64,000 nucleotides of DNA from Spironucleus salmonicida (GCF_000497125.1 NC_090600.1:682001-746000); one strand, 5' to 3'; counted from the first letter of the stretch, positions 7,685-36,316 are shown. The notes: a model not told the origin generated them from the letters alone. Program-made: numbers and translations.

Positions 7685-10420
7685 TTTTAATTTAAAATAG
7701 TATATATTTAATATAATTAAAAATATTATAATTACATAATCAAAAATTTAATATTTTTATTCATATAATAATAGTTTTATAAAAATTAGATATTATATAC
7801 TTGTTGACTGATTAATTTTATTAAACGTTTGCTTGATGCGTTACAAGATAAGTTCATTAAGAAGTTTACATTTAAATACGAGTTTGTGAAATTAATTTTA
7901 GTATTAAATTATTATTATTCATAAAATATTGAGTAGTTATGGTTTTACAAATTCCAATATTTTTGTGCCTTTATCTTTATCTTGGATATTTATACTATTA
8001 AATTTAAGTATTACATATTGGTAAGATTTGTTACGAGTAATATACCAGCACTATAGTTTTATAAAAATATTTTATCAGCGTATTATAAATAAATAGAAAT
8101 TAGACAAATATTTTTATATTTTATTATACTCATTTTCAGTATATAATTTTAATATATATTCTGTATTTATGACTCAGCTGGGTTATACTTATAAATATAA
8201 TCTCCTTTCACAAAATTCTAACATTTCATTATTTTTCTTTTATTTTAACAGTTATATAATCTAAATTCAATTTACATATATATGTTTACTATATAAATAA
8301 TATATCCATGCTGTACTTAAAGTTATTAAAGTAAAATTGAAATCAATATACTAAAATTTATTATAAGGGAAAATAAGAATATACCTGACCCTACAATAAT
8401 ATAGTCTCAAAAATAAACCTATAAGAGCAATATTTACTAATAATTATTTTCAATATTAATGTTCTTATATTAAAAAAAATTATAGTTAGAAAGTTTAACA
8501 ATATAATAATTTAATACTTTGTTTGAAAGAAGATATCATAACATCTCCATGTAGTGGGTTAACCATTATCAGCCTAAGCATATTTTTAGAAAAAAATTAT
8601 AGTAGATATACCTGATAGTAGTTAATTTTAGGCTTTTGAATATTCTATTATAGGGGAAACAAATATTCTCATTCTTAATTTTCTTCTTTATCTCTGACAT
8701 TTTATGCTATTTATTTTACTTACGTTTTATCTTTTTACGACATAACCTACAATGTTTCAACTTAACTTAGCATTTACTGCATAATGTATATAAACTGACA
8801 TCAGAAGTATTCATATTAGTTTTTTTGCATTAGAAATATGTTCCTATTATATAGGGAAAGTGTCATGAATTTATGAGTACTTTTATATAGGCAAATTATA
8901 TATAAGACTAACCATTAATTTACCCAAGTATTATCTCAGACATATGTTAAATTCTATTCTAATTTTACAAGAACAAAAAACTGGTCACAAGACAAAGATA
9001 CAAAAGATAGAAAAATAAATTAGTGGACCAAAAACTTACCTTGTGATTCCATTAAATGATTTAAAATATTTGTCACACTACTCAACCCCTCTGATATTTT
9101 GTTAATAGGTATTTATTGTCTCAGGTCATAGCTCAGAGTAATAATTTTCATCAGCATCTTAATGAATAGGAGAACATTACTTGGTATGGCGAACATGTAC
9201 AACTTTGGTCTTTCCATTCTGTGACTCAAAAATGGTAATAATTTACTCATCTATATTAGACCAATTTTGAGTAATCTTATAAATATGTAAACTTTTATCC
9301 ATTGGATCTTATAGTTACAATTACTCTTCTTTTATGTAATATGTAAATTATACTGATTCAAATGAAGTGAAATAGTTATGTACACTTAATATTTTGAATT
9401 AATCCTTAATATAGCTTAGAAATATGTTGAATATATATATTATAACTAATTATTCAACTATTTTTTGTAAAATTGCACTATATGACAATATCCTGTAAAT
9501 AAATCACCACAAAGTCTAAATAGTAAAGTTCGTCGGCAATATTTAGATGATATGTATCTTTTATGTTTACATACTATCTTATACCCACTTCTTGATCATA
9601 AATTCATATTTTCACCGTTCTCCACAAATATTGTTGAACTCTATTTACGAAGCTTTAAACGGAATCATTATATACGGCATACATGCCTGTTTTTTATCTG
9701 TGTTTTCACGCTTCTAACTACTCATTTTAATGTTCTCTAGAAGTATTTTCATCCTCAATTAATTCTTATATCTATTATTATGCATTCTCATTCTAGTATA
9801 TCTCATTTTATGATATAAGATTTAATCTTAGTTCTTCTTTAGGCAGCTTCTCAACCGTAAACTTATTAAAGAATTTTAAGCAAGATAATGTTCACAAGAA
9901 TAAATCCCTGGATAGGAATTATTTTAGACCCTAATGTTGATATCCTGTATCTTTAATAATATAATCATCTAATCTAGGTCTGGGTGATCTATTCATAATA
10001 ATAATTTAAATAATAAACTATTTGACCTCATCTATCGTAACTCTTTGATCAAAGTATTAAAAAAAGTATTTCATAGGGTTATTAGTTGATTTTAAAACTG
10101 AGGACTATAAGTATTCAATAAAAAATTAAAATTGAGTTTTGAATGGATTTCAAAATTTGGTCCATTTTCAGAATTTGGATGGGTAAATAAATATAAATTA
10201 AATTAAAGAATAATCATTTAATATCAAAATCAAGTAAACTGAAATAATAGAATTATTATTTAATAATATTGTACCCATTTTTTGTTGTCCGACAAAAAAA
10301 GTTCACAATATGCGTTAAAGAGTTAAGTTTTAACACCATCCCTCCTAGCCCCGCTCCGGGAATGCAGCACCCGGCGAAACGGCGATGGGGGCTGCACAAT
10401 GCCGGCAGTGACCAGATTCC

Positions 10421-10885
10421 TCACTTTCCAAGCAGCTTGAGCGAGCGGAGCCGCGTGCGCACCTGGCAGTCGGTACGGCCTAGCACCGCCCCGATCTTCG
10501 CAAATGCATGGGGGTGGGCCGTGAACAGCCGCCCGAGCGCCTCGTCCTCCTCCGGCGTGAAGGGCGCTGTGTTCCGCCGCAGGACCCTCCGGTAGCGCTG
10601 GGACAGCCTGAGCGCCGAGAACGAGGCCCTGGGGAACAGCGCCTCCATCTCGTTGCAGATCCCCTCCCAGGTCCCCCGCTTCTGGCGCCCGAGGCGGAGC
10701 AGCGCCTGGTCGTGGTCCTGCTGGTCCTGCCCCGGAAGGTCCCACGGCGCGCTCACGAGCTGGGGGTCCACGGCCAGCTGCGAGTCGTCCCCGTCTGGTC
10801 TAGGGGCCCATCCCAGATCGCGCATGCGGACTGTCGGGCCGACGAGCTGCGGGGGTCTGGACGGCAGTTTCCGAGCGCCGGACAT
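10421..10885 (-). CDS. Myb-like protein, array copy 1, 154 aa (MSGARKLP...SLKLLGK)
   Basis: Two degenerate Myb repeats (..DQALLRLGRQKRGTWEGIC..RLSQRYRRVL; PFTPEEDEALGRLFTAHPHAFAKIGAVLGRTDCQVRTRL). ATG lies in the AT-rich ttctaaaATG context and the gene ends aAGTGA. Confidence 0.85.
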   Translation of the reverse strand: MSGARKLPSRPPQLVGPTVRMRDLGWAPRPDGDDSQLAVDPQLVSAPWDLPGQDQQDHDQALLRLGRQKRGTWEGICNEMEALFPRASFSALRLSQRYRRVLRRNTAPFTPEEDEALGRLFTAHPHAFAKIGAVLGRTDCQVRTRLRSLKLLGK

Positions 10886-11613
10886 TTTAGAACATGATGG
10901 CTTTAAATCGCGTGCTAAGTGGTATCTGGTACCGCCGATAGAACGAGTCGGGCGCACCTGGGTAATACGGGGTATAATTCGATTTTTCTCCTCGGCCGCT
11001 CCCGTAAAATCGGCCGCGGCTAAACGCCTGGCCTCCAGCGCAGTACGACCAGCCATGGAATGCAGCCACGGCGGGCGGCGTCGGATGACCACTGTACGTG
11101 GGCCGGGGGGCGCGGCCCGAAGAACTGCACAGGAGCGCTAGGCGTGCCGCGGATATGCCGACAGCAGGTCTGGCGAGCGTCGCATTCCGGCGCGGGTCTC
11201 GGGCTGCCCCTACCCTGATGGGCACTGGGGCACGCACCGCGCTGGTGGGACTGCCGGATCCGACTCGCAGCGCGGTGCCTCGTGCCAGACCCGGGGCTGC
11301 GAGCCCAGCACTTTTCAGCGGGGACGCCCGGGCCAGCCGCGGCATCCTGGTACACTGCGACCCCATGGCACCGCGCACCCTGACCCCGCGGGTGCTGGGG
11401 CATGCTCCCGCCACTCCCATTTTTAGAATGGAGCCGAATGGGGCCTATGGCGCCGGACCAGCGCGGCAGGTGACGCCATGATGCCGAGGAGCACTGTCTG
11501 GCGGGCTGCTGTCATGGTTCCCTGGCGACCGGCCTCCCCAGCCCCGCTCCGGGAATGCAGCACCCGGCGAAACGGCGATGGGGGCTGCACAATGCCGGCA
11601 GTGACCAGATTCC

Positions 11614-12078
11614 TCACTTTCCAAGCAGCTTGAGCGAGCGGAGCCGCGTGCGCACCTGGCAGTCGGTACGGCCTAGCACCGCCCCGATCTTCGCAAATGC
11701 ATGGGGGTGGGCCGTGAACAGCCGCCCGAGCGCCTCGTCCTCCTCCGGCGTGAAGGGCGCTGTGTTCCGCCGCAGGACCCTCCGGTAGCGCTGGGACAGC
11801 CTGAGCGCCGAGAACGAGGCCCTGGGGAACAGCGCCTCCATCTCGTTGCAGATCCCCTCCCAGGTCCCCCGCTTCTGGCGCCCGAGGCGGAGCAGCGCCT
11901 GGTCGTGGTCCTGCTGGTCCTGCCCCGGAAGGTCCCACGGCGCGCTCACGAGCTGGGGGTCCACGGCCAGCTGCGAGTCGTCCCCGTCTGGTCTAGGGGC
12001 CCATCCCAGATCGCGCATGCGGACTGTCGGGCCGACGAGCTGCGGGGGTCTGGACGGCAGTTTCCGAGCGCCGGACAT
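11614..12078 (-). CDS. Myb-like protein, array copy 2
   Basis: Protein identical to copy 1. Confidence 0.85.
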   Translation of the reverse strand: MSGARKLPSRPPQLVGPTVRMRDLGWAPRPDGDDSQLAVDPQLVSAPWDLPGQDQQDHDQALLRLGRQKRGTWEGICNEMEALFPRASFSALRLSQRYRRVLRRNTAPFTPEEDEALGRLFTAHPHAFAKIGAVLGRTDCQVRTRLRSLKLLGK

Positions 12079-12806
12079 TTTAGAACATGATGGCTTTAAA
12101 TCGCGTGCTAAGTGGTATCTGGTACCGCCGATAGAACGAGTCGGGCGCACCTGGGTAATACGGGGTATAATTCGATTTTTCTCCTCGGCCGCTCCCGTAA
12201 AATCGGCCGCGGCTAAACGCCTGGCCTCCAGCGCAGTACGACCAGCCATGGAATGCAGCCACGGCGGGCGGCGTCGGATGACCACTGTACGTGGGCCGGG
12301 GGGCGCGGCCCGAAGAACTGCACAGGAGCGCTAGGCGTGCCGCGGATATGCCGACAGCAGGTCTGGCGAGCGTCGCATTCCGGCGCGGGTCTCGGGCTGC
12401 CCCTACCCTGATGGGCACTGGGGCACGCACCGCGCTGGTGGGACTGCCGGATCCGACTCGCAGCGCGGTGCCTCGTGCCAGACCCGGGGCTGCGAGCCCA
12501 GCACTTTTCAGCGGGGACGCCCGGGCCAGCCGCGGCATCCTGGTACACTGCGACCCCATGGCACCGCGCACCCTGACCCCGCGGGTGCTGGGGCATGCTC
12601 CCGCCACTCCCATTTTTAGAATGGAGCCGAATGGGGCCTATGGCGCCGGACCAGCGCGGCAGGTGACGCCATGATGCCGAGGAGCACTGTCTGGCGGGCT
12701 GCTGTCATGGTTCCCTGGCGACCGGCCTCCCCAGCCCCGCTCCGGGAATGCAGCACCCGGCGAAACGGCGATGGGGGCTGCACAATGCCGGCAGTGACCA
12801 GATTCC

Positions 12807-13271
12807 TCACTTTCCAAGCAGCTTGAGCGAGCGGAGCCGCGTGCGCACCTGGCAGTCGGTACGGCCTAGCACCGCCCCGATCTTCGCAAATGCATGGGGG
12901 TGGGCCGTGAACAGCCGCCCGAGCGCCTCGTCCTCCTCCGGCGTGAAGGGCGCTGTGTTCCGCCGCAGGACCCTCCGGTAGCGCTGGGACAGCCTGAGCG
13001 CCGAGAACGAGGCCCTGGGGAACAGCGCCTCCATCTCGTTGCAGATCCCCTCCCAGGTCCCCCGCTTCTGGCGCCCGAGGCGGAGCAGCGCCTGGTCGTG
13101 GTCCTGCTGGTCCTGCCCCGGAAGGTCCCACGGCGCGCTCACGAGCTGGGGGTCCACGGCCAGCTGCGAGTCGTCCCCGTCTGGTCTAGGGGCCCATCCC
13201 AGATCGCGCATGCGGACTGTCGGGCCGACGAGCTGCGGGGGTCTGGACGGCAGTTTCCGAGCGCCGGACAT
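12807..13271 (-). CDS. Myb-like protein, array copy 3
   Basis: Protein identical to copy 1. Confidence 0.85.
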   Translation of the reverse strand: MSGARKLPSRPPQLVGPTVRMRDLGWAPRPDGDDSQLAVDPQLVSAPWDLPGQDQQDHDQALLRLGRQKRGTWEGICNEMEALFPRASFSALRLSQRYRRVLRRNTAPFTPEEDEALGRLFTAHPHAFAKIGAVLGRTDCQVRTRLRSLKLLGK

Positions 13272-13999
13272 TTTAGAACATGATGGCTTTAAATCGCGTG
13301 CTAAGTGGTATCTGGTACCGCCGATAGAACGAGTCGGGCGCACCTGGGTAATACGGGGTATAATTCGATTTTTCTCCTCGGCCGCTCCCGTAAAATCGGC
13401 CGCGGCTAAACGCCTGGCCTCCAGCGCAGTACGACCAGCCATGGAATGCAGCCACGGCGGGCGGCGTCGGATGACCACTGTACGTGGGCCGGGGGGCGCG
13501 GCCCGAAGAACTGCACAGGAGCGCTAGGCGTGCCGCGGATATGCCGACAGCAGGTCTGGCGAGCGTCGCATTCCGGCGCGGGTCTCGGGCTGCCCCTACC
13601 CTGATGGGCACTGGGGCACGCACCGCGCTGGTGGGACTGCCGGATCCGACTCGCAGCGCGGTGCCTCGTGCCAGACCCGGGGCTGCGAGCCCAGCACTTT
13701 TCAGCGGGGACGCCCGGGCCAGCCGCGGCATCCTGGTACACTGCGACCCCATGGCACCGCGCACCCTGACCCCGCGGGTGCTGGGGCATGCTCCCGCCAC
13801 TCCCATTTTTAGAATGGAGCCGAATGGGGCCTATGGCGCCGGACCAGCGCGGCAGGTGACGCCATGATGCCGAGGAGCACTGTCTGGCGGGCTGCTGTCA
13901 TGGTTCCCTGGCGACCGGCCTCCCCAGCCCCGCTCCGGGAATGCAGCACCCGGCGAAACGGCGATGGGGGCTGCACAATGCCGGCAGTGACCAGATTCC

Positions 14000-14464
14000 T
14001 CACTTTCCAAGCAGCTTGAGCGAGCGGAGCCGCGTGCGCACCTGGCAGTCGGTACGGCCTAGCACCGCCCCGATCTTCGCAAATGCATGGGGGTGGGCCG
14101 TGAACAGCCGCCCGAGCGCCTCGTCCTCCTCCGGCGTGAAGGGCGCTGTGTTCCGCCGCAGGACCCTCCGGTAGCGCTGGGACAGCCTGAGCGCCGAGAA
14201 CGAGGCCCTGGGGAACAGCGCCTCCATCTCGTTGCAGATCCCCTCCCAGGTCCCCCGCTTCTGGCGCCCGAGGCGGAGCAGCGCCTGGTCGTGGTCCTGC
14301 TGGTCCTGCCCCGGAAGGTCCCACGGCGCGCTCACGAGCTGGGGGTCCACGGCCAGCTGCGAGTCGTCCCCGTCTGGTCTAGGGGCCCATCCCAGATCGC
14401 GCATGCGGACTGTCGGGCCGACGAGCTGCGGGGGTCTGGACGGCAGTTTCCGAGCGCCGGACAT
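14000..14464 (-). CDS. Myb-like protein, array copy 4
   Basis: Protein identical to copy 1. Confidence 0.85.
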   Translation of the reverse strand: MSGARKLPSRPPQLVGPTVRMRDLGWAPRPDGDDSQLAVDPQLVSAPWDLPGQDQQDHDQALLRLGRQKRGTWEGICNEMEALFPRASFSALRLSQRYRRVLRRNTAPFTPEEDEALGRLFTAHPHAFAKIGAVLGRTDCQVRTRLRSLKLLGK

Positions 14465-15192
14465 TTTAGAACATGATGGCTTTAAATCGCGTGCTAAGTG
14501 GTATCTGGTACCGCCGATAGAACGAGTCGGGCGCACCTGGGTAATACGGGGTATAATTCGATTTTTCTCCTCGGCCGCTCCCGTAAAATCGGCCGCGGCT
14601 AAACGCCTGGCCTCCAGCGCAGTACGACCAGCCATGGAATGCAGCCACGGCGGGCGGCGTCGGATGACCACTGTACGTGGGCCGGGGGGCGCGGCCCGAA
14701 GAACTGCACAGGAGCGCTAGGCGTGCCGCGGATATGCCGACAGCAGGTCTGGCGAGCGTCGCATTCCGGCGCGGGTCTCGGGCTGCCCCTACCCTGATGG
14801 GCACTGGGGCACGCACCGCGCTGGTGGGACTGCCGGATCCGACTCGCAGCGCGGTGCCTCGTGCCAGACCCGGGGCTGCGAGCCCAGCACTTTTCAGCGG
14901 GGACGCCCGGGCCAGCCGCGGCATCCTGGTACACTGCGACCCCATGGCACCGCGCACCCTGACCCCGCGGGTGCTGGGGCATGCTCCCGCCACTCCCATT
15001 TTTAGAATGGAGCCGAATGGGGCCTATGGCGCCGGACCAGCGCGGCAGGTGACGCCATGATGCCGAGGAGCACTGTCTGGCGGGCTGCTGTCATGGTTCC
15101 CTGGCGACCGGCCTCCCCAGCCCCGCTCCGGGAATGCAGCACCCGGCGAAACGGCGATGGGGGCTGCACAATGCCGGCAGTGACCAGATTCC

Positions 15193-15657
15193 TCACTTTC
15201 CAAGCAGCTTGAGCGAGCGGAGCCGCGTGCGCACCTGGCAGTCGGTACGGCCTAGCACCGCCCCGATCTTCGCAAATGCATGGGGGTGGGCCGTGAACAG
15301 CCGCCCGAGCGCCTCGTCCTCCTCCGGCGTGAAGGGCGCTGTGTTCCGCCGCAGGACCCTCCGGTAGCGCTGGGACAGCCTGAGCGCCGAGAACGAGGCC
15401 CTGGGGAACAGCGCCTCCATCTCGTTGCAGATCCCCTCCCAGGTCCCCCGCTTCTGGCGCCCGAGGCGGAGCAGCGCCTGGTCGTGGTCCTGCTGGTCCT
15501 GCCCCGGAAGGTCCCACGGCGCGCTCACGAGCTGGGGGTCCACGGCCAGCTGCGAGTCGTCCCCGTCTGGTCTAGGGGCCCATCCCAGATCGCGCATGCG
15601 GACTGTCGGGCCGACGAGCTGCGGGGGTCTGGACGGCAGTTTCCGAGCGCCGGACAT
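15193..15657 (-). CDS. Myb-like protein, array copy 5
   Basis: Protein identical to copy 1. Confidence 0.85.
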   Translation of the reverse strand: MSGARKLPSRPPQLVGPTVRMRDLGWAPRPDGDDSQLAVDPQLVSAPWDLPGQDQQDHDQALLRLGRQKRGTWEGICNEMEALFPRASFSALRLSQRYRRVLRRNTAPFTPEEDEALGRLFTAHPHAFAKIGAVLGRTDCQVRTRLRSLKLLGK

Positions 15658-16385
15658 TTTAGAACATGATGGCTTTAAATCGCGTGCTAAGTGGTATCTG
15701 GTACCGCCGATAGAACGAGTCGGGCGCACCTGGGTAATACGGGGTATAATTCGATTTTTCTCCTCGGCCGCTCCCGTAAAATCGGCCGCGGCTAAACGCC
15801 TGGCCTCCAGCGCAGTACGACCAGCCATGGAATGCAGCCACGGCGGGCGGCGTCGGATGACCACTGTACGTGGGCCGGGGGGCGCGGCCCGAAGAACTGC
15901 ACAGGAGCGCTAGGCGTGCCGCGGATATGCCGACAGCAGGTCTGGCGAGCGTCGCATTCCGGCGCGGGTCTCGGGCTGCCCCTACCCTGATGGGCACTGG
16001 GGCACGCACCGCGCTGGTGGGACTGCCGGATCCGACTCGCAGCGCGGTGCCTCGTGCCAGACCCGGGGCTGCGAGCCCAGCACTTTTCAGCGGGGACGCC
16101 CGGGCCAGCCGCGGCATCCTGGTACACTGCGACCCCATGGCACCGCGCACCCTGACCCCGCGGGTGCTGGGGCATGCTCCCGCCACTCCCATTTTTAGAA
16201 TGGAGCCGAATGGGGCCTATGGCGCCGGACCAGCGCGGCAGGTGACGCCATGATGCCGAGGAGCACTGTCTGGCGGGCTGCTGTCATGGTTCCCTGGCGA
16301 CCGGCCTCCCCAGCCCCGCTCCGGGAATGCAGCACCCGGCGAAACGGCGATGGGGGCTGCACAATGCCGGCAGTGACCAGATTCC

Positions 16386-17578: not shown

Positions 17579-18043
17579 TCACTTTCCAAGCAGCTTGAGC
17601 GAGCGGAGCCGCGTGCGCACCTGGCAGTCGGTACGGCCTAGCACCGCCCCGATCTTCGCAAATGCATGGGGGTGGGCCGTGAACAGCCGCCCGAGCGCCT
17701 CGTCCTCCTCCGGCGTGAAGGGCGCTGTGTTCCGCCGCAGGACCCTCCGGTAGCGCTGGGACAGCCTGAGCGCCGAGAACGAGGCCCTGGGGAACAGCGC
17801 CTCCATCTCGTTGCAGATCCCCTCCCAGGTCCCCCGCTTCTGGCGCCCGAGGCGGAGCAGCGCCTGGTCGTGGTCCTGCCGGTCCTGCCCCGGAAGGTCC
17901 CACGGCGCGCTCACGAGCTGGGGGTCCACGGCCAGCTGCGAGTCGTCCCCGTCTGGTCTAGGGGCCCATCCCAGATCGCGCATGCGGACTGTCGGGCCGA
18001 CGAGCTGCGGGGGTCTGGACGGCAGTTTCCGAGCGCCGGACAT
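17579..18043 (-). CDS. Myb-like protein, array copy 7 (Q>R variant)
   Basis: T>C at 17880 gives GQDRQD instead of GQDQQD. Confidence 0.85.
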   Translation of the reverse strand: MSGARKLPSRPPQLVGPTVRMRDLGWAPRPDGDDSQLAVDPQLVSAPWDLPGQDRQDHDQALLRLGRQKRGTWEGICNEMEALFPRASFSALRLSQRYRRVLRRNTAPFTPEEDEALGRLFTAHPHAFAKIGAVLGRTDCQVRTRLRSLKLLGK

Positions 18044-18771: not shown

Positions 18772-19235
18772 TCACTTTCCAAGCAGCTTGAGCGAGCGGA
18801 GCCGCGTGCGCACCTGGCAGTCGGTACGGCCTAGCACCGCCCCGATCTTCGCAAATGCATGGGGGTGGGCCGTGAACAGCCGCCCGAGCGCCTCGTCCTC
18901 CTCCGGCGTGAAGGGCGCTGTGTTCCGCCGCAGGACCCCCGGTAGCGCTGGGACAGCCTGAGCGCCGAGAACGAGGCCCTGGGGAACAGCGCCTCCATCT
19001 CGTTGCAGATCCCCTCCCAGGTCCCCCGCTTCTGGCGCCCGAGGCGGAGCAGCGCCTGGTCGTGGTCCTGCTGGTCCTGCCCCGGAAGGTCCCACGGCGC
19101 GCTCACGAGCTGGGGGTCCACGGCCAGCTGCGAGTCGTCCCCGTCTGGTCTAGGGGCCCATCCCAGATCGCGCATGCGGACTGTCGGGCCGACGAGCTGC
19201 GGGGGTCTGGACGGCAGTTTCCGAGCGCCGGACAT
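18772..19235 (-). pseudogene. Myb-like array copy 8, frameshifted (or a sequencing error)
   Basis: caggacccccgg near 18938 versus caggaccctccgg in other copies: a 1-bp deletion. Confidence 0.7.
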
Positions 19236-21156: not shown

Positions 21157-21621
21157 TCACTTTCCAAGCAGCTTGAGCGAGCGGAGCCGCGTGCGCACCT
21201 GGCAGTCGGTACGGCCTAGCACCGCCCCGATCTTCGCAAATGCATGGGGGTGGGCCGTGAACAGCCGCCCGAGCGCCTCGTCCTCCTCCGGCGTGAAGGG
21301 CGCTGTGTTCCGCCGCAGGACCCTCCGGTAGCGCTGGGACAGCCTGAGCGCCGAGAACGAGGCCCTGGGGAACAGCGCCTCCATCTCGTTGCAGATCCCC
21401 TCCCAGGTCCCCCGCTTCTGGCGCCCGAGGCGGAGCAGCGCCTGGTCGTGGTCCTGCTGGTCCTGCCCCGGAAGGTCCCACGGCGCGCTCACGAGCTGGG
21501 GGTCCACGGCCAGCTGCGAGTCGTCCCCGTCTGGTCTAGGGGCCCATCCCAGATCGCGCATGCGGACTGTCGGGCCGACGAGCTGCGGGGGTCTGGACGG
21601 CAGTTTCCGAGCGCCGGACAT
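21157..21621 (-). CDS. Myb-like protein, array copy 10
   Basis: Protein identical to copy 1. Confidence 0.85.
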   Translation of the reverse strand: MSGARKLPSRPPQLVGPTVRMRDLGWAPRPDGDDSQLAVDPQLVSAPWDLPGQDQQDHDQALLRLGRQKRGTWEGICNEMEALFPRASFSALRLSQRYRRVLRRNTAPFTPEEDEALGRLFTAHPHAFAKIGAVLGRTDCQVRTRLRSLKLLGK

Positions 21622-22349
21622 TTTAGAACATGATGGCTTTAAATCGCGTGCTAAGTGGTATCTGGTACCGCCGATAGAACGAGTCGGGCGCACCTGGGTA
21701 ATACGGGGTATAATTCGATTTTTCTCCTCGGCCGCTCCCGTAAAATCGGCCGCGGCTAAACGCCTGGCCTCCAGCGCAGTACGACCAGCCATGGAATGCA
21801 GCCACGGCGGGCGGCGTCGGATGACCACTGTACGTGGGCCGGGGGGCGCGGCCCGAAGAACTGCACAGGAGCGCTAGGCGTGCCGCGGATATGCCGACAG
21901 CAGGTCTGGCGAGCGTCGCATTCCGGCGCGGGTCTCGGGCTGCCCCTACCCTGATGGGCACTGGGGCACGCACCGCGCTGGTGGGACTGCCGGATCCGAC
22001 TCGCAGCGCGGTGCCTCGTGCCAGACCCGGGGCTGCGAGCCCAGCACTTTTCAGCGGGGACGCCCGGGCCAGCCGCGGCATCCTGGTACACTGCGACCCC
22101 ATGGCACCGCGCACCCTGACCCCGCGGGTGCTGGGGCATGCTCCCGCCACTCCCATTTTTAGAATGGAGCCGAATGGGGCCTATGGCGCCGGACCAGCGC
22201 GGCAGGTGACGCCATGATGCCGAGGAGCACTGTCTGGCGGGCTGCTGTCATGGTTCCCTGGCGACCGGCCTCCCCAGCCCCGCTCCGGGAATGCAGCACC
22301 CGGCGAAACGGCGATGGGGGCTGCACAATGCCGGCAGTGACCAGATTCC

Positions 22350-22814
22350 TCACTTTCCAAGCAGCTTGAGCGAGCGGAGCCGCGTGCGCACCTGGCAGTC
22401 GGTACGGCCTAGCACCGCCCCGATCTTCGCAAATGCATGGGGGTGGGCCGTGAACAGCCGCCCGAGCGCCTCGTCCTCCTCCGGCGTGAAGGGCGCTGTG
22501 TTCCGCCGCAGGACCCTCCGGTAGCGCTGGGACAGCCTGAGCGCCGAGAACGAGGCCCTGGGGAACAGCGCCTCCATCTCGTTGCAGATCCCCTCCCAGG
22601 TCCCCCGCTTCTGGCGCCCGAGGCGGAGCAGCGCCTGGTCGTGGTCCTGCTGGTCCTGCCCCGGAAGGTCCCACGGCGCGCTCACGAGCTGGGGGTCCAC
22701 GGCCAGCTGCGAGTCGTCCCCGTCTGGTCTAGGGGCCCATCCCAGATCGCGCATGCGGACTGTCGGGCCGACGAGCTGCGGGGGTCTGGACGGCAGTTTC
22801 CGAGCGCCGGACAT
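22350..22814 (-). CDS. Myb-like protein, array copy 11
   Basis: Protein identical to copy 1. Confidence 0.85.
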   Translation of the reverse strand: MSGARKLPSRPPQLVGPTVRMRDLGWAPRPDGDDSQLAVDPQLVSAPWDLPGQDQQDHDQALLRLGRQKRGTWEGICNEMEALFPRASFSALRLSQRYRRVLRRNTAPFTPEEDEALGRLFTAHPHAFAKIGAVLGRTDCQVRTRLRSLKLLGK

Positions 22815-23542
22815 TTTAGAACATGATGGCTTTAAATCGCGTGCTAAGTGGTATCTGGTACCGCCGATAGAACGAGTCGGGCGCACCTGGGTAATACGGG
22901 GTATAATTCGATTTTTCTCCTCGGCCGCTCCCGTAAAATCGGCCGCGGCTAAACGCCTGGCCTCCAGCGCAGTACGACCAGCCATGGAATGCAGCCACGG
23001 CGGGCGGCGTCGGATGACCACTGTACGTGGGCCGGGGGGCGCGGCCCGAAGAACTGCACAGGAGCGCTAGGCGTGCCGCGGATATGCCGACAGCAGGTCT
23101 GGCGAGCGTCGCATTCCGGCGCGGGTCTCGGGCTGCCCCTACCCTGATGGGCACTGGGGCACGCACCGCGCTGGTGGGACTGCCGGATCCGACTCGCAGC
23201 GCGGTGCCTCGTGCCAGACCCGGGGCTGCGAGCCCAGCACTTTTCAGCGGGGACGCCCGGGCCAGCCGCGGCATCCTGGTACACTGCGACCCCATGGCAC
23301 CGCGCACCCTGACCCCGCGGGTGCTGGGGCATGCTCCCGCCACTCCCATTTTTAGAATGGAGCCGAATGGGGCCTATGGCGCCGGACCAGCGCGGCAGGT
23401 GACGCCATGATGCCGAGGAGCACTGTCTGGCGGGCTGCTGTCATGGTTCCCTGGCGACCGGCCTCCCCAGCCCCGCTCCGGGAATGCAGCACCCGGCGAA
23501 ACGGCGATGGGGGCTGCACAATGCCGGCAGTGACCAGATTCC

Positions 23543-24007
23543 TCACTTTCCAAGCAGCTTGAGCGAGCGGAGCCGCGTGCGCACCTGGCAGTCGGTACGG
23601 CCTAGCACCGCCCCGATCTTCGCAAATGCATGGGGGTGGGCCGTGAACAGCCGCCCGAGCGCCTCGTCCTCCTCCGGCGTGAAGGGCGCTGTGTTCCGCC
23701 GCAGGACCCTCCGGTAGCGCTGGGACAGCCTGAGCGCCGAGAACGAGGCCCTGGGGAACAGCGCCTCCATCTCGTTGCAGATCCCCTCCCAGGTCCCCCG
23801 CTTCTGGCGCCCGAGGCGGAGCAGCGCCTGGTCGTGGTCCTGCTGGTCCTGCCCCGGAAGGTCCCACGGCGCGCTCACGAGCTGGGGGTCCACGGCCAGC
23901 TGCGAGTCGTCCCCGTCTGGTCTAGGGGCCCATCCCAGATCGCGCATGCGGACTGTCGGGCCGACGAGCTGCGGGGGTCTGGACGGCAGTTTCCGAGCGC
24001 CGGACAT
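23543..24007 (-). CDS. Myb-like protein, array copy 12
   Basis: Protein identical to copy 1. Confidence 0.85.
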   Translation of the reverse strand: MSGARKLPSRPPQLVGPTVRMRDLGWAPRPDGDDSQLAVDPQLVSAPWDLPGQDQQDHDQALLRLGRQKRGTWEGICNEMEALFPRASFSALRLSQRYRRVLRRNTAPFTPEEDEALGRLFTAHPHAFAKIGAVLGRTDCQVRTRLRSLKLLGK

Positions 24008-24735
24008 TTTAGAACATGATGGCTTTAAATCGCGTGCTAAGTGGTATCTGGTACCGCCGATAGAACGAGTCGGGCGCACCTGGGTAATACGGGGTATAAT
24101 TCGATTTTTCTCCTCGGCCGCTCCCGTAAAATCGGCCGCGGCTAAACGCCTGGCCTCCAGCGCAGTACGACCAGCCATGGAATGCAGCCACGGCGGGCGG
24201 CGTCGGATGACCACTGTACGTGGGCCGGGGGGCGCGGCCCGAAGAACTGCACAGGAGCGCTAGGCGTGCCGCGGATATGCCGACAGCAGGTCTGGCGAGC
24301 GTCGCATTCCGGCGCGGGTCTCGGGCTGCCCCTACCCTGATGGGCACTGGGGCACGCACCGCGCTGGTGGGACTGCCGGATCCGACTCGCAGCGCGGTGC
24401 CTCGTGCCAGACCCGGGGCTGCGAGCCCAGCACTTTTCAGCGGGGACGCCCGGGCCAGCCGCGGCATCCTGGTACACTGCGACCCCATGGCACCGCGCAC
24501 CCTGACCCCGCGGGTGCTGGGGCATGCTCCCGCCACTCCCATTTTTAGAATGGAGCCGAATGGGGCCTATGGCGCCGGACCAGCGCGGCAGGTGACGCCA
24601 TGATGCCGAGGAGCACTGTCTGGCGGGCTGCTGTCATGGTTCCCTGGCGACCGGCCTCCCCAGCCCCGCTCCGGGAATGCAGCACCCGGCGAAACGGCGA
24701 TGGGGGCTGCACAATGCCGGCAGTGACCAGATTCC

Positions 24736-25200
24736 TCACTTTCCAAGCAGCTTGAGCGAGCGGAGCCGCGTGCGCACCTGGCAGTCGGTACGGCCTAGCA
24801 CCGCCCCGATCTTCGCAAATGCATGGGGGTGGGCCGTGAACAGCCGCCCGAGCGCCTCGTCCTCCTCCGGCGTGAAGGGCGCTGTGTTCCGCCGCAGGAC
24901 CCTCCGGTAGCGCTGGGACAGCCTGAGCGCCGAGAACGAGGCCCTGGGGAACAGCGCCTCCATCTCGTTGCAGATCCCCTCCCAGGTCCCCCGCTTCTGG
25001 CGCCCGAGGCGGAGCAGCGCCTGGTCGTGGTCCTGCTGGTCCTGCCCCGGAAGGTCCCACGGCGCGCTCACGAGCTGGGGGTCCACGGCCAGCTGCGAGT
25101 AGTCCCCGTCTGGTCTAGGGGCCCATCCCAGATCGCGCATGCGGACTGTCGGGCCGACGAGCTGCGGGGGTCTGGACGGCAGTTTCCGAGCGCCGGACAT
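24736..25200 (-). CDS. Myb-like protein, array copy 13 (D>Y variant)
   Basis: C>A at 25101 gives PDGDYSQ instead of PDGDDSQ. Confidence 0.85.
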   Translation of the reverse strand: MSGARKLPSRPPQLVGPTVRMRDLGWAPRPDGDYSQLAVDPQLVSAPWDLPGQDQQDHDQALLRLGRQKRGTWEGICNEMEALFPRASFSALRLSQRYRRVLRRNTAPFTPEEDEALGRLFTAHPHAFAKIGAVLGRTDCQVRTRLRSLKLLGK

Positions 25201-25928
25201 TTTAGAACATGATGGCTTTAAATCGCGTGCTAAGTGGTATCTGGTACCGCCGATAGAACGAGTCGGGCGCACCTGGGTAATACGGGGTATAATTCGATTT
25301 TTCTCCTCGGCCGCTCCCGTAAAATCGGCCGCGGCTAAACGCCTGGCCTCCAGCGCAGTACGACCAGCCATGGAATGCAGCCACGGCGGGCGGCGTCGGA
25401 TGACCACTGTACGTGGGCCGGGGGGCGCGGCCCGAAGAACTGCACAGGAGCGCTAGGCGTGCCGCGGATATGCCGACAGCAGGTCTGGCGAGCGTCGCAT
25501 TCCGGCGCGGGTCTCGGGCTGCCCCTACCCTGATGGGCACTGGGGCACGCACCGCGCTGGTGGGACTGCCGGATCCGACTCGCAGCGCGGTGCCTCGTGC
25601 CAGACCCGGGGCTGCGAGCCCAGCACTTTTCAGCGGGGACGCCCGGGCCAGCCGCGGCATCCTGGTACACTGCGACCCCATGGCACCGCGCACCCTGACC
25701 CCGCGGGTGCTGGGGCATGCTCCCGCCACTCCCATTTTTAGAATGGAGCCGAATGGGGCCTATGGCGCCGGACCAGCGCGGCAGGTGACGCCATGATGCC
25801 GAGGAGCACTGTCTGGCGGGCTGCTGTCATGGTTCCCTGGCGACCGGCCTCCCCAGCCCCGCTCCGGGAATGCAGCACCCGGCGAAACGGCGATGGGGGC
25901 TGCACAATGCCGGCAGTGACCAGATTCC

Positions 25929-26393
25929 TCACTTTCCAAGCAGCTTGAGCGAGCGGAGCCGCGTGCGCACCTGGCAGTCGGTACGGCCTAGCACCGCCCC
26001 GATCTTCGCAAATGCATGGGGGTGGGCCGTGAACAGCCGCCCGAGCGCCTCGTCCTCCTCCGGCGTGAAGGGCGCTGTGTTCCGCCGCAGGACCCTCCGG
26101 TAGCGCTGGGACAGCCTGAGCGCCGAGAACGAGGCCCTGGGGAACAGCGCCTCCATCTCGTTGCAGATCCCCTCCCAGGTCCCCCGCTTCTGGCGCCCGA
26201 GGCGGAGCAGCGCCTGGTCGTGGTCCTGCTGGTCCTGCCCCGGAAGGTCCCACGGCGCGCTCACGAGCTGGGGGTCCACGGCCAGCTGCGAGTCGTCCCC
26301 GTCTGGTCTAGGGGCCCATCCCAGATCGCGCATGCGGACTGTCGGGCCGACGAGCTGCGGGGGTCTGGACGGCAGTTTCCGAGCGCCGGACAT
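25929..26393 (-). CDS. Myb-like protein, array copy 14
   Basis: Protein identical to copy 1. Confidence 0.85.
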   Translation of the reverse strand: MSGARKLPSRPPQLVGPTVRMRDLGWAPRPDGDDSQLAVDPQLVSAPWDLPGQDQQDHDQALLRLGRQKRGTWEGICNEMEALFPRASFSALRLSQRYRRVLRRNTAPFTPEEDEALGRLFTAHPHAFAKIGAVLGRTDCQVRTRLRSLKLLGK

Positions 26394-27121
26394 TTTAGAA
26401 CATGATGGCTTTAAATCGCGTGCTAAGTGGTATCTGGTACCGCCGATAGAACGAGTCGGGCGCACCTGGGTAATACGGGGTATAATTCGATTTTTCTCCT
26501 CGGCCGCTCCCGTAAAATCGGCCGCGGCTAAACGCCTGGCCTCCAGCGCAGTACGACCAGCCATGGAATGCAGCCACGGCGGGCGGCGTCGGATGACCAC
26601 TGTACGTGGGCCGGGGGGCGCGGCCCGAAGAACTGCACAGGAGCGCTAGGCGTGCCGCGGATATGCCGACAGCAGGTCTGGCGAGCGTCGCATTCCGGCG
26701 CGGGTCTCGGGCTGCCCCTACCCTGATGGGCACTGGGGCACGCACCGCGCTGGTGGGACTGCCGGATCCGACTCGCAGCGCGGTGCCTCGTGCCAGACCC
26801 GGGGCTGCGAGCCCAGCACTTTTCAGCGGGGACGCCCGGGCCAGCCGCGGCATCCTGGTACACTGCGACCCCATGGCACCGCGCACCCTGACCCCGCGGG
26901 TGCTGGGGCATGCTCCCGCCACTCCCATTTTTAGAATGGAGCCGAATGGGGCCTATGGCGCCGGACCAGCGCGGCAGGTGACGCCATGATGCCGAGGAGC
27001 ACTGTCTGGCGGGCTGCTGTCATGGTTCCCTGGCGACCGGCCTCCCCAGCCCCGCTCCGGGAATGCAGCACCCGGCGAAACGGCGATGGGGGCTGCACAA
27101 TGCCGGCAGTGACCAGATTCC

Positions 27122-27586
27122 TCACTTTCCAAGCAGCTTGAGCGAGCGGAGCCGCGTGCGCACCTGGCAGTCGGTACGGCCTAGCACCGCCCCGATCTTC
27201 GCAAATGCATGGGGGTGGGCCGTGAACAGCCGCCCGAGCGCCTCGTCCTCCTCCGGCGTGAAGGGCGCTGTGTTCCGCCGCAGGACCCTCCGGTAGCGCT
27301 GGGACAGCCTGAGCGCCGAGAACGAGGCCCTGGGGAACAGCGCCTCCATCTCGTTGCAGATCCCCTCCCAGGTCCCCCGCTTCTGGCGCCCGAGGCGGAG
27401 CAGCGCCTGGTCGTGGTCCTGCTGGTCCTGCCCCGGAAGGTCCCACGGCGCGCTCACGAGCTGGGGGTCCACGGCCAGCTGCGAGTCGTCCCCGTCTGGT
27501 CTAGGGGCCCATCCCAGATCGCGCATGCGGACTGTCGGGCCGACGAGCTGCGGGGGTCTGGACGGCAGTTTCCGAGCGCCGGACAT
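27122..27586 (-). CDS. Myb-like protein, array copy 15
   Basis: Protein identical to copy 1. Confidence 0.85.
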   Translation of the reverse strand: MSGARKLPSRPPQLVGPTVRMRDLGWAPRPDGDDSQLAVDPQLVSAPWDLPGQDQQDHDQALLRLGRQKRGTWEGICNEMEALFPRASFSALRLSQRYRRVLRRNTAPFTPEEDEALGRLFTAHPHAFAKIGAVLGRTDCQVRTRLRSLKLLGK

Positions 27587-28314
27587 TTTAGAACATGATG
27601 GCTTTAAATCGCGTGCTAAGTGGTATCTGGTACCGCCGATAGAACGAGTCGGGCGCACCTGGGTAATACGGGGTATAATTCGATTTTTCTCCTCGGCCGC
27701 TCCCGTAAAATCGGCCGCGGCTAAACGCCTGGCCTCCAGCGCAGTACGACCAGCCATGGAATGCAGCCACGGCGGGCGGCGTCGGATGACCACTGTACGT
27801 GGGCCGGGGGGCGCGGCCCGAAGAACTGCACAGGAGCGCTAGGCGTGCCGCGGATATGCCGACAGCAGGTCTGGCGAGCGTCGCATTCCGGCGCGGGTCT
27901 CGGGCTGCCCCTACCCTGATGGGCACTGGGGCACGCACCGCGCTGGTGGGACTGCCGGATCCGACTCGCAGCGCGGTGCCTCGTGCCAGACCCGGGGCTG
28001 CGAGCCCAGCACTTTTCAGCGGGGACGCCCGGGCCAGCCGCGGCATCCTGGTACACTGCGACCCCATGGCACCGCGCACCCTGACCCCGCGGGTGCTGGG
28101 GCATGCTCCCGCCACTCCCATTTTTAGAATGGAGCCGAATGGGGCCTATGGCGCCGGACCAGCGCGGCAGGTGACGCCATGATGCCGAGGAGCACTGTCT
28201 GGCGGGCTGCTGTCATGGTTCCCTGGCGACCGGCCTCCCCAGCCCCGCTCCGGGAATGCAGCACCCGGCGAAACGGCGATGGGGGCTGCACAATGCCGGC
28301 AGTGACCAGATTCC

Positions 28315-28779
28315 TCACTTTCCAAGCAGCTTGAGCGAGCGGAGCCGCGTGCGCACCTGGCAGTCGGTACGGCCTAGCACCGCCCCGATCTTCGCAAATG
28401 CATGGGGGTGGGCCGTGAACAGCCGCCCGAGCGCCTCGTCCTCCTCCGGCGTGAAGGGCGCTGTGTTCCGCCGCAGGACCCTCCGGTAGCGCTGGGACAG
28501 CCTGAGCGCCGAGAACGAGGCCCTGGGGAACAGCGCCTCCATCTCGTTGCAGATCCCCTCCCAGGTCCCCCGCTTCTGGCGCCCGAGGCGGAGCAGCGCC
28601 TGGTCGTGGTCCTGCTGGTCCTGCCCCGGAAGGTCCCACGGCGCGCTCACGAGCTGGGGGTCCACGGCCAGCTGCGAGTCGTCCCCGTCTGGTCTAGGGG
28701 CCCATCCCAGATCGCGCATGCGGACTGTCGGGCCGACGAGCTGCGGGGGTCTGGACGGCAGTTTCCGAGCGCCGGACAT
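28315..28779 (-). CDS. Myb-like protein, array copy 16
   Basis: Protein identical to copy 1 from MSGARK. Only 73 bp of the unit are present upstream of this ATG. Confidence 0.85.
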   Translation of the reverse strand: MSGARKLPSRPPQLVGPTVRMRDLGWAPRPDGDDSQLAVDPQLVSAPWDLPGQDQQDHDQALLRLGRQKRGTWEGICNEMEALFPRASFSALRLSQRYRRVLRRNTAPFTPEEDEALGRLFTAHPHAFAKIGAVLGRTDCQVRTRLRSLKLLGK

Positions 28780-29597
28780 TTTAGAACATGATGGCTTTAA
28801 ATCGCGTGCTAAGTGGTATCTGGTACCGCCGATAGAACGAGTCGGGCGCACCGGTGAACCAGTCACTGGCAGCGTCAGGGGACTTGGGTAGCAGTGCATT
28901 AGAAACTCTGCGCAACGAACAGTACCATAGTAAATCCGCGACAGGTGCACGCGCCTCGCCCTATAGTGTAGTTCCCGGCTGAGGTGGGTTTGGTAAGTGC
29001 TAAGACTGCGGCCAAGAGCGCCTGTTGCGACCGCTCCGTTTCACGCAAATGGCCAAGTTTTACATGGTATCACGTTGCCTAAAATCCTAAGATTTGCTCG
29101 GGGCAATCATGAAGGACCAGTAGGCCTCGCATAGCTCGCATATCTCGTGCATACGCAGGGCTCCTATAGCAGCATCCGATACCGTTCCCTGCACAAAATT
29201 GAGGGGACAAGGTGCCGTGCGCCATGCAGTCTCGTCTGGTGTCTTTGAGGCCAAGTTTGCCATCAACTGCCCAGTTAGCACCCTCGCCCGTGCGAACTTG
29301 GCCAAAGCAGGAGCGGCGCAAGGCTGAAACATTAACGACTTGGGCGGAGCGGGCGATTGGGATGCGCGAGATACTGGTTTTTCGCGGAGCACGGCTAGGC
29401 CTAGCCATGGGGGTGCAGTTGGGTGCATTGACATTTGCGAAGCTTGGTTTTTCTAAGCTGGTGCATACCTTATGTTTCGTGAATAGTACCCTGGACCGCG
29501 TCGCTGCGATATTTCACAACGTGCACCTAAATAATACTTTTTAATGGAACAATTATACTCATTATTATACCATATTAGCACAAAAACTATTTGCTAA

Positions 29598-34536: not shown

Positions 34537-34551
34537 TCGAAGTGGTAAAAG

Positions 34552-34625
34552 TAGCTGCAGTGAGGATTGAACTCACGACCCCTAGCTTATGAGACTAATG
34601 CTCTAACCGACTGAGCTATGCAGCC
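34552..34625 (-). tRNA. trnM: tRNA-Met(CAT), elongator type
   Basis: Mirror of 36228..36301. Confidence 0.93.
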
Positions 34626-36301: not shown

Positions 36302-36316
36302 CTTTTACCACTTCGA

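Follow-up and report, generated by a model that had tools for sequence, protein, structure and literature searches.

Why does a chromosome of the fish-parasitic Spironucleus salmonicida carry sixteen almost indistinguishable copies of a gene for a Myb-type protein, in a GC-rich block that begins abruptly in AT-rich DNA? The locus lies in a stretch of 64,000 nucleotides (GCF_000497125.1, NC_090600.1:682001-746000), referred to here as the window, and positions are counted from its first letter; the studies cited by accession are drawn on in excerpt. The reading that we favour, with slightly better than even confidence, is that a native, lineage-restricted two-repeat Spironucleus Myb gene was amplified in place, homogenised by recombination and driven towards GC, and that the array would provide a dosage-type supply of its product.

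Architecture and uniformity of the array

A repeat search of the window and the comparison of units agree on 16 in-register, head-to-tail copies, with start-to-start distances of 1193 bp in 14 cases and 1192 bp in one. The period and copy number given in a preliminary description of the locus, made from the sequence alone, are thereby confirmed, as is its first coordinate, while its last (28852) falls one base short of the true end. The array spans 18,507 bp, or 15.51 units, and mapping of the unit's first 25 bases resolves it into 15 full units and a last partial unit of 613 bp (Table 1). It is a genuine, nearly homogeneous tandem repeat of Myb-domain ORFs. TRF does not report it, because the longest period admitted (500) is shorter than the 1193-bp unit.

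Table 1. Positions of the array, its parts and the adjoining repeats in the window.
Feature	Position	Strand	Remarks
Whole tandem array	10347..28853	.	15 full 1193-bp units (one of 1192 bp) and a 613-bp terminal partial; period and anchor mapping
Segment A, 613 bp, x16	10347..10959	-	74 nt 3' of the stop, 465-nt ORF, 74 nt 5' of the ATG
First ORF copy (unit 1)	10421..10885	-	Identical to reference
Promoter-like 74 nt 5' of each ATG	10886..10959	-	50% GC; AAA before ATG, TTTAAA about 20 nt upstream; signal rules from PMC3916229
Segment B, non-coding spacer, 580 bp, x15	10960..11539	.	69% GC
Reference unit (unit 2)	11540..12732	.	11 other full units identical to it; unit comparison
Unit 2 Myb ORF, example copy	11614..12078	-	154 aa and TGA stop in AGTGA context
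Unit 7 substitution	17880..17880	.	T->C (+ strand), Q55R
Unit 8 ORF copy, frameshifted	18772..19235	-	1 bp deleted at position 242 of the unit (window, about 18939); frame lost after about residue 99
Unit 13 substitution	25101..25101	.	C->A (+ strand), D34Y
Last ORF copy (unit 16)	28315..28779	-	Identical to reference; beyond -74 upstream lies unique right flank, not spacer B
Inverted repeat I1, left arm	28779..34923	.	Starts inside the last Myb copy's start codon; partner 35930-42074, 4 mismatches in 6145 nt
Orphan 74-nt upstream segment	42001..42074	+	Outer end of the other 6.1-kb arm; ends at the start-codon position, no ORF after it

The layout can be written L-A-(B-A)15-R, with 16 copies of segment A and 15 of segment B. 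The final member (28241-28853) is exactly segment A, and A stands against unique flank at both ends of the array, which is the pattern expected of in-situ amplification of a resident segment.

Twelve of the 15 full units are identical base for base, and the whole 18.5 kb holds three single-base differences, namely one substitution each in units 7 and 13 and a 1-bp deletion in unit 8. At the level of the ORF, 13 of the 16 copies are identical, two carry one missense change each (Q55R and D34Y) and one is frameshifted. The 154-aa ORF previously attributed to every unit is thus intact in 15 of 16, unit 8 being the exception; a public read-through model of 332 aa (P0004) matches this frameshifted copy. 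All three differences fall inside the ORF, which occupies 39% of the unit, and all alter or break the protein, so that, on a sample of three, there is no sign of purifying selection. Head-to-tail units, each a complete gene with its spacer, and three single-base differences within the array as against 31% protein identity to the sole relative found, are what one expects of an array evolving in concert.

Short-read polishing cannot assign variants within identical repeat units, and the copy number or the three variants might be artefacts of assembling and polishing a repeat longer than most reads, around a unit that is itself real. The copy number comes from one long-read assembly, whose read N50 of 14.6 kb is shorter than the 18.5-kb array (PMC9509377). 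We nevertheless regard such an artefact as very unlikely. Besides the newer gene models there are older ones, of 254 aa and 75 aa, in UniRef, EukProt and MetaClust, and these go back to independent sequencing of the unit; as the 254-aa model begins inside segment B, the earlier sequencing also covered the B-to-A junction. The four differences between the arms of the flanking palindrome show that this neighbourhood is no fold-back artefact. Furthermore, read coverage at the large repeats inspected matched that of their neighbours and NheI optical maps agreed well with the assembly, in an excerpt that leaves the Myb locus unmentioned (PMC9509377); in silico, a single NheI fragment of 27.35 kb (3864-31218) covers the array.

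The surroundings are gene-poor and AT-rich; large inverted duplications and a gene for a Cys-rich membrane protein adjoin the array, and such regions of S. salmonicida have been called recombinationally active (PMC9509377). The hydrogenase encoded in the window has its nearest named relatives in S. salmonicida and Hexamita inflata, which fits the Spironucleus origin supposed in the preliminary description, as does the genetic code. Near-perfect palindromes are typical of regions with breakage-driven rearrangement.

The encoded protein and its relatives

Every copy of the ORF runs on the minus strand from ATG to TGA. The HMM search that had been suggested as a check of the Myb assignment was run, and the product scores 33.7 bits with PF13921 and 29.3 bits with PF00249, above their gathering scores of 22.9 and 24.4. 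The six canonical tryptophan positions read W48, W73, Y98 / F109, F128, L146, so that Trp is kept at two of six and, as had been noticed, replaced by Y, F, F and L at the other four. With their regular spacing (25/25 in repeat 1, 19/18 in repeat 2), these Trp or hydrophobic residues fit tandem Myb/SANT repeats of about 50 aa. Residues 1-50 are predicted to be disordered, followed by three-helix Myb repeats at about 53-104 and 111-148; the AF2 model places helices at 53-68, 73-83 and 91-104 and at 111-123, 128-135 and 139-148, forming two bundles, with block means of pLDDT between 80 and 98 over residues 51-150.

All of the best Foldseek matches have two Myb repeats (CDC5, T. vaginalis Myb2 and c-Myb; probability 0.94-1.00), at E-values of just 0.028-0.1, with no match at E <= 0.001 and a query-normalised TM of about 0.33. 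One repeat superposes on 2llk with an rmsd of 0.9 A over 41 columns, and in the PDB, sequence matches were obtained with this DMTF1 repeat at E 2.2e-4 and with 3osf at E 0.037. R2R3-type Myb domains (c-Myb, 1h88/1h89; T. vaginalis Myb2, 3osf/3osg; CDC5, 6jui) likewise consist of two consecutive three-helix repeats; the array protein differs from them in the four replaced tryptophans and in the spacing of repeat 1 (25 residues versus about 19). Judged by sequence and predicted fold, the ORF is a true coding sequence for a two-repeat Myb-type protein, predicted to bind DNA, as had been proposed. The reported expansion of Myb genes in Spironucleus also finds support in the literature, with 107 Myb proteins in S. 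salmonicida versus 8 in Giardia (PMC3916229).

Among the top five non-self phmmer matches, the best single alignment is with the S. salmonicida protein P0009 (SS50377_21522, KAH0575985.1, a hypothetical protein of 133 aa; BLASTP identity 31% over 106 aa, with 57.8 bits and E 2e-16), the other four reaching 35.0-44.3 bits; ranked by phmmer E-value, P0009 is only fifth among the non-self matches. A search of 1.84 billion representative proteins gave just 19 weak, generic Myb matches and no specific relative other than P0009. Both proteins are small, end right after the second Myb repeat, pass PF00249 and PF13921, and share a long insertion ahead of the third helix of repeat 1 as well as an atypical SQ[HR]YRRVL segment. 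P0009 differs in having W at both repeat 2 aromatic positions where the array protein has F, and lacks the disordered N-terminal region of about 45 residues. These alignments show the array protein to be paralogous to P0009. The cluster of the array protein is found on one contig only, and P0009 is a single cluster member on one other contig.

The composition of the unit could be taken to mean that a GC-rich virus or eukaryote supplied spacer B, if not the entire unit, and that amplification came later: the unit's GC content is 68% compared with 38% in the rest of the window, all ten Gln codons of the Myb ORF are CAG, the host-specific TAA and TAG being absent, and the protein lacks a close homologue in the searches. 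However, the closest single alignment is with a host protein of the same architecture, and host-type start and stop/poly(A) signals are present in all 16 copies. CAG is also preferred in GC3-rich host genes of the window (10 CAG, 2 CAA and no TAR in an LRR gene), and high-GC3 genes of the species have been judged mostly not to stem from lateral transfer (PMC1805757). Among prokaryotes (185,579 species, one genome each), neither a bacterial or archaeal relative nor an exact match to a spacer 30-mer was found, and the representative proteins and prokaryotic genomes together yielded no bacterial or other donor. A lateral origin is not supported, since no donor homologue in these collections is closer than P0009, and we hold a foreign source to be scarcely probable.

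Base composition and expression signals

The array has a GC content of 0.682, against 0.384 in the remainder of the window, 0.252 in the 1 kb to its left and 0.552 in the 618 bp to its right, and at the left edge the change from 25% to 68% GC coincides with the array's first base. The previously noticed contrast with very AT-rich DNA on the left is therefore real. Within the ORF, GC1/2/3 amounts to 0.72/0.52/0.88, and a strong 3-periodicity, with GC3 of up to 1.00, is restricted to the 154-aa frame, while spacer B (69% GC) lacks codon periodicity. Within the window, B occurs only between copies, and the flanks hold no decayed AT-rich copy by which the array could be dated. An array of structured RNA genes of the 5S, snRNA or SL-RNA type finds no support: the array gave no Rfam match at the gathering score and none at E <= 1 over two units, and the fold of the spacer is ordinary (z-scores -1.2 and -0.2).

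The protein itself is shifted in composition: compared with the AT-type P0009, GARP residues make up 38% versus 18% and FYMINK residues 12% versus 27%, and K-to-R exchanges stand at 7:0. A GC-rich, aperiodic spacer next to a GC-shifted protein suggests that the unit evolved for long under a GC-driving regime, which favours active homogenisation over mere recent amplification. In S. salmonicida, duplicated regions have a mean GC content of 44.7% versus 30.7% elsewhere, for which gene conversion has been proposed (PMC9509377). The earlier proposal of a recent or actively homogenised amplification is accordingly best retained in its second half, and the recent amplification of an ordinary gene fits poorly. 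The near-identity might still indicate youth, if a segment of an already GC-rich island was amplified very recently, possibly in long axenic culture. The three differences in 18.5 kb and the large near-perfect palindrome adjoining the array from inside the last start codon would be in keeping with such a burst, and islands of about 70% GC without arrays occur elsewhere in the species (PMC1805757). Yet the coincidence, to the base, of the left edge of the GC block with the first unit indicates that the GC state follows array membership and not a wider island, and a spacer present only between copies would still require a GC-rich source. A recent burst thus seems distinctly improbable to us.

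Long ORFs emerge in the window only under code 6, in which TGA is the sole stop codon and TAA and TAG are read as Gln. As previously described, all 16 copies begin in an A-rich context (AAA-ATG) and stop at AGTGA; both signals agree with the published S. salmonicida rules (PMC3916229), and AGTGA also terminates 6 of 12 other ORFs of the window. Within the unit (68% GC), AT-rich islands survive only at positions 533-564 and 617-648, which is where promoter and initiator are expected. The 30 nt that precede the ATG show no C-rich stretch, a motif that accompanies highly expressed genes (PMC3916229). Furthermore, S. salmonicida genes with GC3s above 0.5 belong to a class never sampled as ESTs, highly expressed genes centring at about 0.4 (PMC1805757), so that a GC3 of 0.88 makes, by correlation, strong expression of the individual copies less likely.

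These observations bear on whether the locus is a silent macrosatellite, that is, a structural or selfish repeat with Myb ORFs as barely or not expressed relics, uniform through array turnover and not through selection on the protein. The confinement of all three differences to the ORF, the GC3 of the weakly expressed class (PMC1805757), the upstream region devoid of a C-rich promoter-type stretch and the gene-poor, AT-rich setting of a recombinationally active type (PMC9509377) would all suit it. On the other hand, 15 of 16 ORFs are intact and strongly periodic, the surviving AT-rich islands sit exactly at the promoter and initiator positions, the AGTGA stop/poly(A) signal is preserved throughout, and the protein cluster is confined to a single contig, so that the array is no satellite dispersed over the genome in the manner of a common centromere repeat. 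We consider a silent macrosatellite unlikely, although it deserves more weight than a recent burst.

Comparison with known systems and possible role

Human D4Z4, to which the preliminary description compared the locus, is a 3.3 kb GC-rich unit in 10 to 100 copies, each with an ORF for DUX4, a two-domain DNA-binding transcription factor, and the flank supplies a poly(A) signal to its last unit only. The Myb array resembles it in its kilobase-scale GC-rich unit with a transcription-factor-type ORF but has its own AGTGA in all 16 copies. The comparison holds as an analogy only; homology is rejected, since the array domain is Myb and that of DUX4 a homeodomain.

Tandem arrays of S. salmonicida include one of 5S rRNA genes on chromosome 9, with 40 copies, and one of histone H4 on chromosome 3, where 9 copies are joined by 5 pseudo-copies and reverse transcriptases (PMC9509377). 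Like the Myb array, these consist of a short gene and spacer, head-to-tail in the same genome, and need long reads to be resolved, but they code for bulk structural products and not for a DNA-binding-domain protein. The excerpted account of that genome paper does not include the Myb array (PMC9509377), which apparently has not been described before in this Spironucleus chromosome. A further parallel is offered by the GC-rich segments of Andersson et al. (2007; PMC1805757), where GC content likewise shifts abruptly from 30% to about 70%, in GC3 and non-coding DNA alike, without being ascribed to lateral transfer, and where genes have high GC3s and were unsampled as ESTs. Those segments are gene-dense unique sequence in finished contigs, whereas the Myb GC block is coextensive with a tandem array on its left side.

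In the favoured account of a native gene amplified in place, resident segment A would have been multiplied in situ, the 16 A being joined by 15 B as junction or spacer; the origin of spacer B is not accounted for by this amplification model. Unequal sister-chromatid exchange, gene conversion or both would keep the copies near-identical by concerted evolution. A recombination-linked, GC-favouring process of this genome, most plausibly GC-biased gene conversion, may have raised ORF and spacer to about 68-70% GC and pulled the protein towards Gly, Ala, Arg and Pro. Segment A has retained the host expression signals, namely the TATA-like element, the AAA before the ATG and AGTGA as a stop overlapping the poly(A) signal, and with these in each A every intact copy is a potential independent transcription unit of about 0.5 kb. 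From these signals we infer that the array is probably transcribed and would act through dosage, the likely effect being that a small DNA-binding protein is supplied according to copy number.

A bolder possibility, to which we give very little credence, is a self-referential macrosatellite driven towards GC, in which the Myb product would bind a motif of the very repeat that encodes it; the locus would then nucleate a chromatin domain, serving as a landmark specific to its chromosome, as a boundary or in a centromere-like role. Or the unit might be selfish and self-amplifying, with copy number and protein dose coupled by feedback.

Architecture and composition of the array

With the unit's first 25 bases as the anchor, the array comprises 15 full units and a terminal partial unit of 613 bp, and its span of 18,507 bp corresponds to 15.51 units. 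A repeat search recovered 16 in-register copies (10335-28779), with a start-to-start spacing of 1193 bp in 14 cases and 1192 bp in one. Among the 15 full units, 12 have exactly the same sequence; units 7 and 13 each carry one substitution, and unit 8 a 1-bp deletion. The 16-copy tandem array of 1193-bp units claimed in a preliminary description of this DNA is thus borne out, as is its claim of a GC-rich block bordered by AT-rich DNA on the left: GC content is 68.2% in the array versus 38.4% in the remainder of the window, and drops abruptly at the array's first base to 25.2% in the 1 kb to the left. In the 618 bp to the right it is 55.2%. Tandem Repeats Finder did not report the array, the unit being longer than its period limit of 500.

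The unit is composed of two segments, A, which carries the Myb-like ORF, and B, a spacer (see the table of features). Segment A forms both ends of the array and adjoins unique DNA on the left and on the right. No internal duplication was found inside the unit, and searches of the flanks with blastn (word size 7) and with tblastn under code 6 revealed no decayed older copies. A telomeric position is not indicated, as (TAGG)n occurs nowhere in the window.

Segment B is non-coding. The long ORFs that it contains gave no Pfam match at E <= 0.001, with weak noise only, and show no three-base periodicity, so that a second coding gene was rejected. An array of RNA genes was likewise rejected, because there was no Rfam match at the gathering score and none at E <= 1 over two units, no tRNA lies within the array, and the spacer folds no better than its shuffles.

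The Myb-like protein, its gene models and expression signals

The ORF runs on the minus strand from ATG to TGA and encodes 154 aa. The Myb profile check named in the preliminary description was run, and both Pfam Myb models match above their cut-offs (PF13921, 33.7 bits against 22.9; PF00249, 29.3 bits against 24.4). The six canonical aromatic positions are occupied by W48, W73 and Y98 in the first repeat and by F109, F128 and L146 in the second, exactly the tryptophan replacements (Y, F, F, L) described before. An AlphaFold2 model, built from an 11-sequence alignment, has a mean pLDDT of 78 and predicts six helices in two bundles at residues 53-148 (block means 80-98), residues 1-50 being of low confidence. 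With this model, Foldseek found no match in the PDB at E <= 0.001; its top matches are all two-repeat Myb proteins, namely CDC5, T. vaginalis Myb2 and c-Myb (E 0.028-0.1, probability 0.94-1.00). A single repeat superposes on DMTF1 (2llk) at 0.9 A, and the same entry was retrieved by a PDB sequence search (E 2.2e-4).

Thirteen of the 16 ORF copies are identical and two others carry Q55R or D34Y, while the copy in unit 8 is frameshifted beyond about residue 99. The earlier claim of a Myb ORF in every unit therefore holds as far as the presence of 16 copies is concerned, but not for the integrity of the copy in unit 8, and one array copy is a pseudogene.

Public databases hold the array copies as annotated proteins. 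The newer models of this protein cluster are all on one contig, and the cluster also includes older models of 254 aa and 75 aa (UniRef, EukProt, MetaClust), the former with an in-frame TAG read as Gln. In all 16 copies, the 211-aa public models begin 57 codons ahead of the A-rich ATG. In a sliding window, strong three-base periodicity is confined to the 154 codons, where GC3 reaches 1.00 (GC by codon position 0.72/0.52/0.88 over the ORF), and is absent from the 580-bp spacer and from the 57-codon extension, which also has no A-rich context. The 211-aa models are thus probably over-extended, and the 154-aa ORF is the better-supported gene model. A public model of 332 aa reads through the frameshift of unit 8.

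Genes of S. salmonicida are described as typically having a TATA element at -60 to -20; the ATG often follows immediately on three A's, and the stop codon typically lies within AGTGA, a motif that also serves as the poly(A) signal (PMC3916229). In all 16 array copies AAA precedes the ATG, TTTAAA lies about 20 nt upstream and AAGTGA is found at the stop, confirming the AT-rich start context and AGTGA stop noted previously; AGTGA also ends 6 of the 12 other ORFs in the window. Only three AT-rich islands are left in the 68% GC unit, one of them directly before the Myb ATG and another about 80-110 nt upstream of it. The third lies within spacer B, at unit positions 1067-1093, where it repeats the Myb ORF's start context (TTCTAAAAATG against TTCTAAAATG); the frame that follows it is devoid of codon periodicity, and the island is a possible second initiator or relic promoter.

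Four alternatives to the amplification of a native gene in place retain some weight, because transcription is predicted from these signals, high-GC3 genes of S. salmonicida belong to the class absent from the sampled ESTs (PMC1805757), the 30 nt upstream of the array ATGs contain no C-rich stretch, all three inter-unit differences fall in the ORF and alter or break it (probability about 0.06 by position alone), and the read N50 given for the reference assembly falls short of the array's length (PMC9509377). Most of these points bear on a silent macrosatellite, in which the ORFs would be expressed hardly or not at all; given the start and stop signals kept by every copy, we regard this as unlikely, although it is the strongest of the four. 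The last point bears on a copy number created by the assembly itself, which is very unlikely; owing to that read length, the exact copy number needs confirmation by depth or optical map. In silico, NheI cuts at 3864 and 31218 and nowhere between, and the resulting 27.35-kb fragment should span the array.

Surroundings of the array

The window is read under code 6, in which TAA and TAG encode Gln. Under the standard code the first 10.3 kb contain no ORF of at least 90 aa and the rest of the window just short ones, whereas code 6 yields long ORFs, including ones of 2318, 873, 606 and 467 aa; the ORFs listed all end in TGA, the sole stop. The 2318-aa ORF contains 110 in-frame TAA/TAG codons; its product gave no Pfam match at 1e-3 and resembles the cysteine-rich membrane proteins that have been described in S. 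salmonicida. The nearest named relatives of the hydrogenase are S. salmonicida FeFe-hydrogenase 2 (58%) and hydrogenases of Hexamita inflata (49-54%). Together with the code and the older gene models, they indicate that the window is from Spironucleus, very probably S. salmonicida.

The single Myb gene to the left of the array is of the ordinary kind, with a GC3 of 0.84 and two in-frame TAG codons; its product is no more than a distant relative of the array protein (33% identity over 81 aa). On the right, the left arm of the 6145-nt inverted repeat starts within the ATG of the final Myb copy, so that the 74-nt upstream segment is found again at 42001-42074, where no ORF follows it. Both arms contain a tRNA-Met, a gene for an LRR protein and an ORF of 565 aa.

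Features of the array and its surroundings (window coordinates)
Feature	Position	Strand	Size	Remarks
Inverted repeat, 1915 nt	1-1915 and 2374-4288		1915 nt per arm	458-nt spacer, 0 mismatches, from the window's first base; duplicates 171-aa and 264-aa ORFs (code 6), both without Pfam match
Single Myb gene	5632-6153	+	173 aa	PF00249 54 bits; 4.2 kb left of array
Gene-poor gap	6200-10346		about 4 kb	22-27% GC, directly left of array; low-complexity code-6 ORFs only, no recognisable gene
Myb array	10347-28853	-	18,507 bp	Strand is that of the ORF
Segment A			613 bp	16 copies; 74 nt 3' flank, 465-nt ORF, 74 nt 5' flank
Segment B			580 bp	15 copies, solely between A copies; 69% GC
Third AT-rich island, example	11413-11439	-		Inside segment B
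57-codon extension of 211-aa models, example	12079-12249	-	57 codons
Inverted repeat, 6145 nt	28779-34923 and 35930-42074		6145 nt per arm	1006-nt spacer, 4 mismatches
54-bp tandem repeat	34985-35119		2.5 copies	Inside a 375-aa ORF of the 6145-nt palindrome's spacer; Met/Pro/Gln-rich reiterated peptide
Putative Cys-rich membrane protein	42144-49100	-	2318 aa	7.9% Cys, CXXC-rich repeats, hydrophobic C-terminal region
[FeFe] hydrogenase	61277-62680	+	467 aa	Nine in-frame TAA/TAG codons

Origin, GC enrichment and significance

A phmmer search of 1.84 billion representatives returned 21 proteins at E <= 1e-3, of which two are models of the array itself and 19 are generic Myb matches (E 1e-7 to 7e-4). 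Ranking by summed score places long multi-repeat proteins on top; the best single alignment among the top five non-self matches is to P0009, a 133-aa Myb-like protein of S. salmonicida (SS50377_21522, KAH0575985.1; 57.8 bits, E 2e-16, 31% over 106 aa), and the remaining four reach 35.0-44.3 bits. P0009 and the array protein have in common their architecture and an atypical SQ[HR]YRRVL segment. A two-sequence profile search retrieved the array protein's own cluster and P0009 only (2 of 459 candidates). As a lead only, the ESM Atlas gave Myb-named clusters at a score of 0.82. The genome paper on Hexamita inflata does not contain the word 'Myb'.

Bacterial or archaeal origin or contamination was rejected: among 185,579 prokaryotic species, with one genome each, a 30-nt spacer string had no exact match, and 288 pattern matches included no confirmed protein relative. 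A foreign origin in the wider sense is the least probable alternative, barely below the assembly artefact. A word-indexed search with the array protein found its own cluster only (1 of 194 candidates); the presence of A at both ends is not the pattern expected of a randomly phased array inserted from elsewhere, and abrupt changes in GC content between about 30% and about 70%, which affect GC3 and non-coding DNA together, are reported for S. salmonicida and were judged not to be due to LGT (PMC1805757).

The 16 copies of A and 15 copies of B, with A abutting unique DNA on both sides, point instead to a resident Myb gene that would have been amplified in situ together with B as a single junction or filler sequence. 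At positions aligned between the array protein and P0009, GARP residues occur in the array protein alone at 31 and in P0009 alone at 9, and the ratio for K-to-R is 7:0. The 68% GC affects spacer and protein alike and coincides with array membership, on the left side to the base, which matches the prediction of GC-biased gene conversion. Such conversion is established elsewhere as enriching multi-copy families, and was reportedly described for histones by Galtier in 2003, a study cited in PMC3924837. In S. salmonicida itself, duplicated regions average 44.7% GC versus 30.7% elsewhere, and gene conversion has been suggested (PMC9509377). A very recent burst in copy number, under which the identity of the units would reflect their youth, appears rather improbable beside this compositional signal. 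Most economically, the locus is read as a native gene array that unequal exchange or conversion would keep homogeneous, the same process making it GC-rich.

A literature search on Spironucleus Myb genes, tandem arrays and GC-rich arrays found no paper describing this array, and the available text of the S. salmonicida reference-genome paper, which reports arrays of 5S and histone H4, does not mention it (PMC9509377). As a tandem gene array or macrosatellite, it is of a known kind; what is unusual is its composition and the fact that it carries a transcription-factor-type protein. Transcriptional regulation in diplomonads is regarded as simple. The large Myb expansion of S. salmonicida, of unexplained purpose, comprises 107 proteins versus 8 in Giardia (PMC3916229). 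A Myb gene at about 15 intact identical copies would be the most extreme case of this expansion and would offer a natural handle on dosage-based regulation. Furthermore, the array provides a clean test case for the GC-rich segments reported from the S. salmonicida genome, which are themselves unexplained (PMC1805757).
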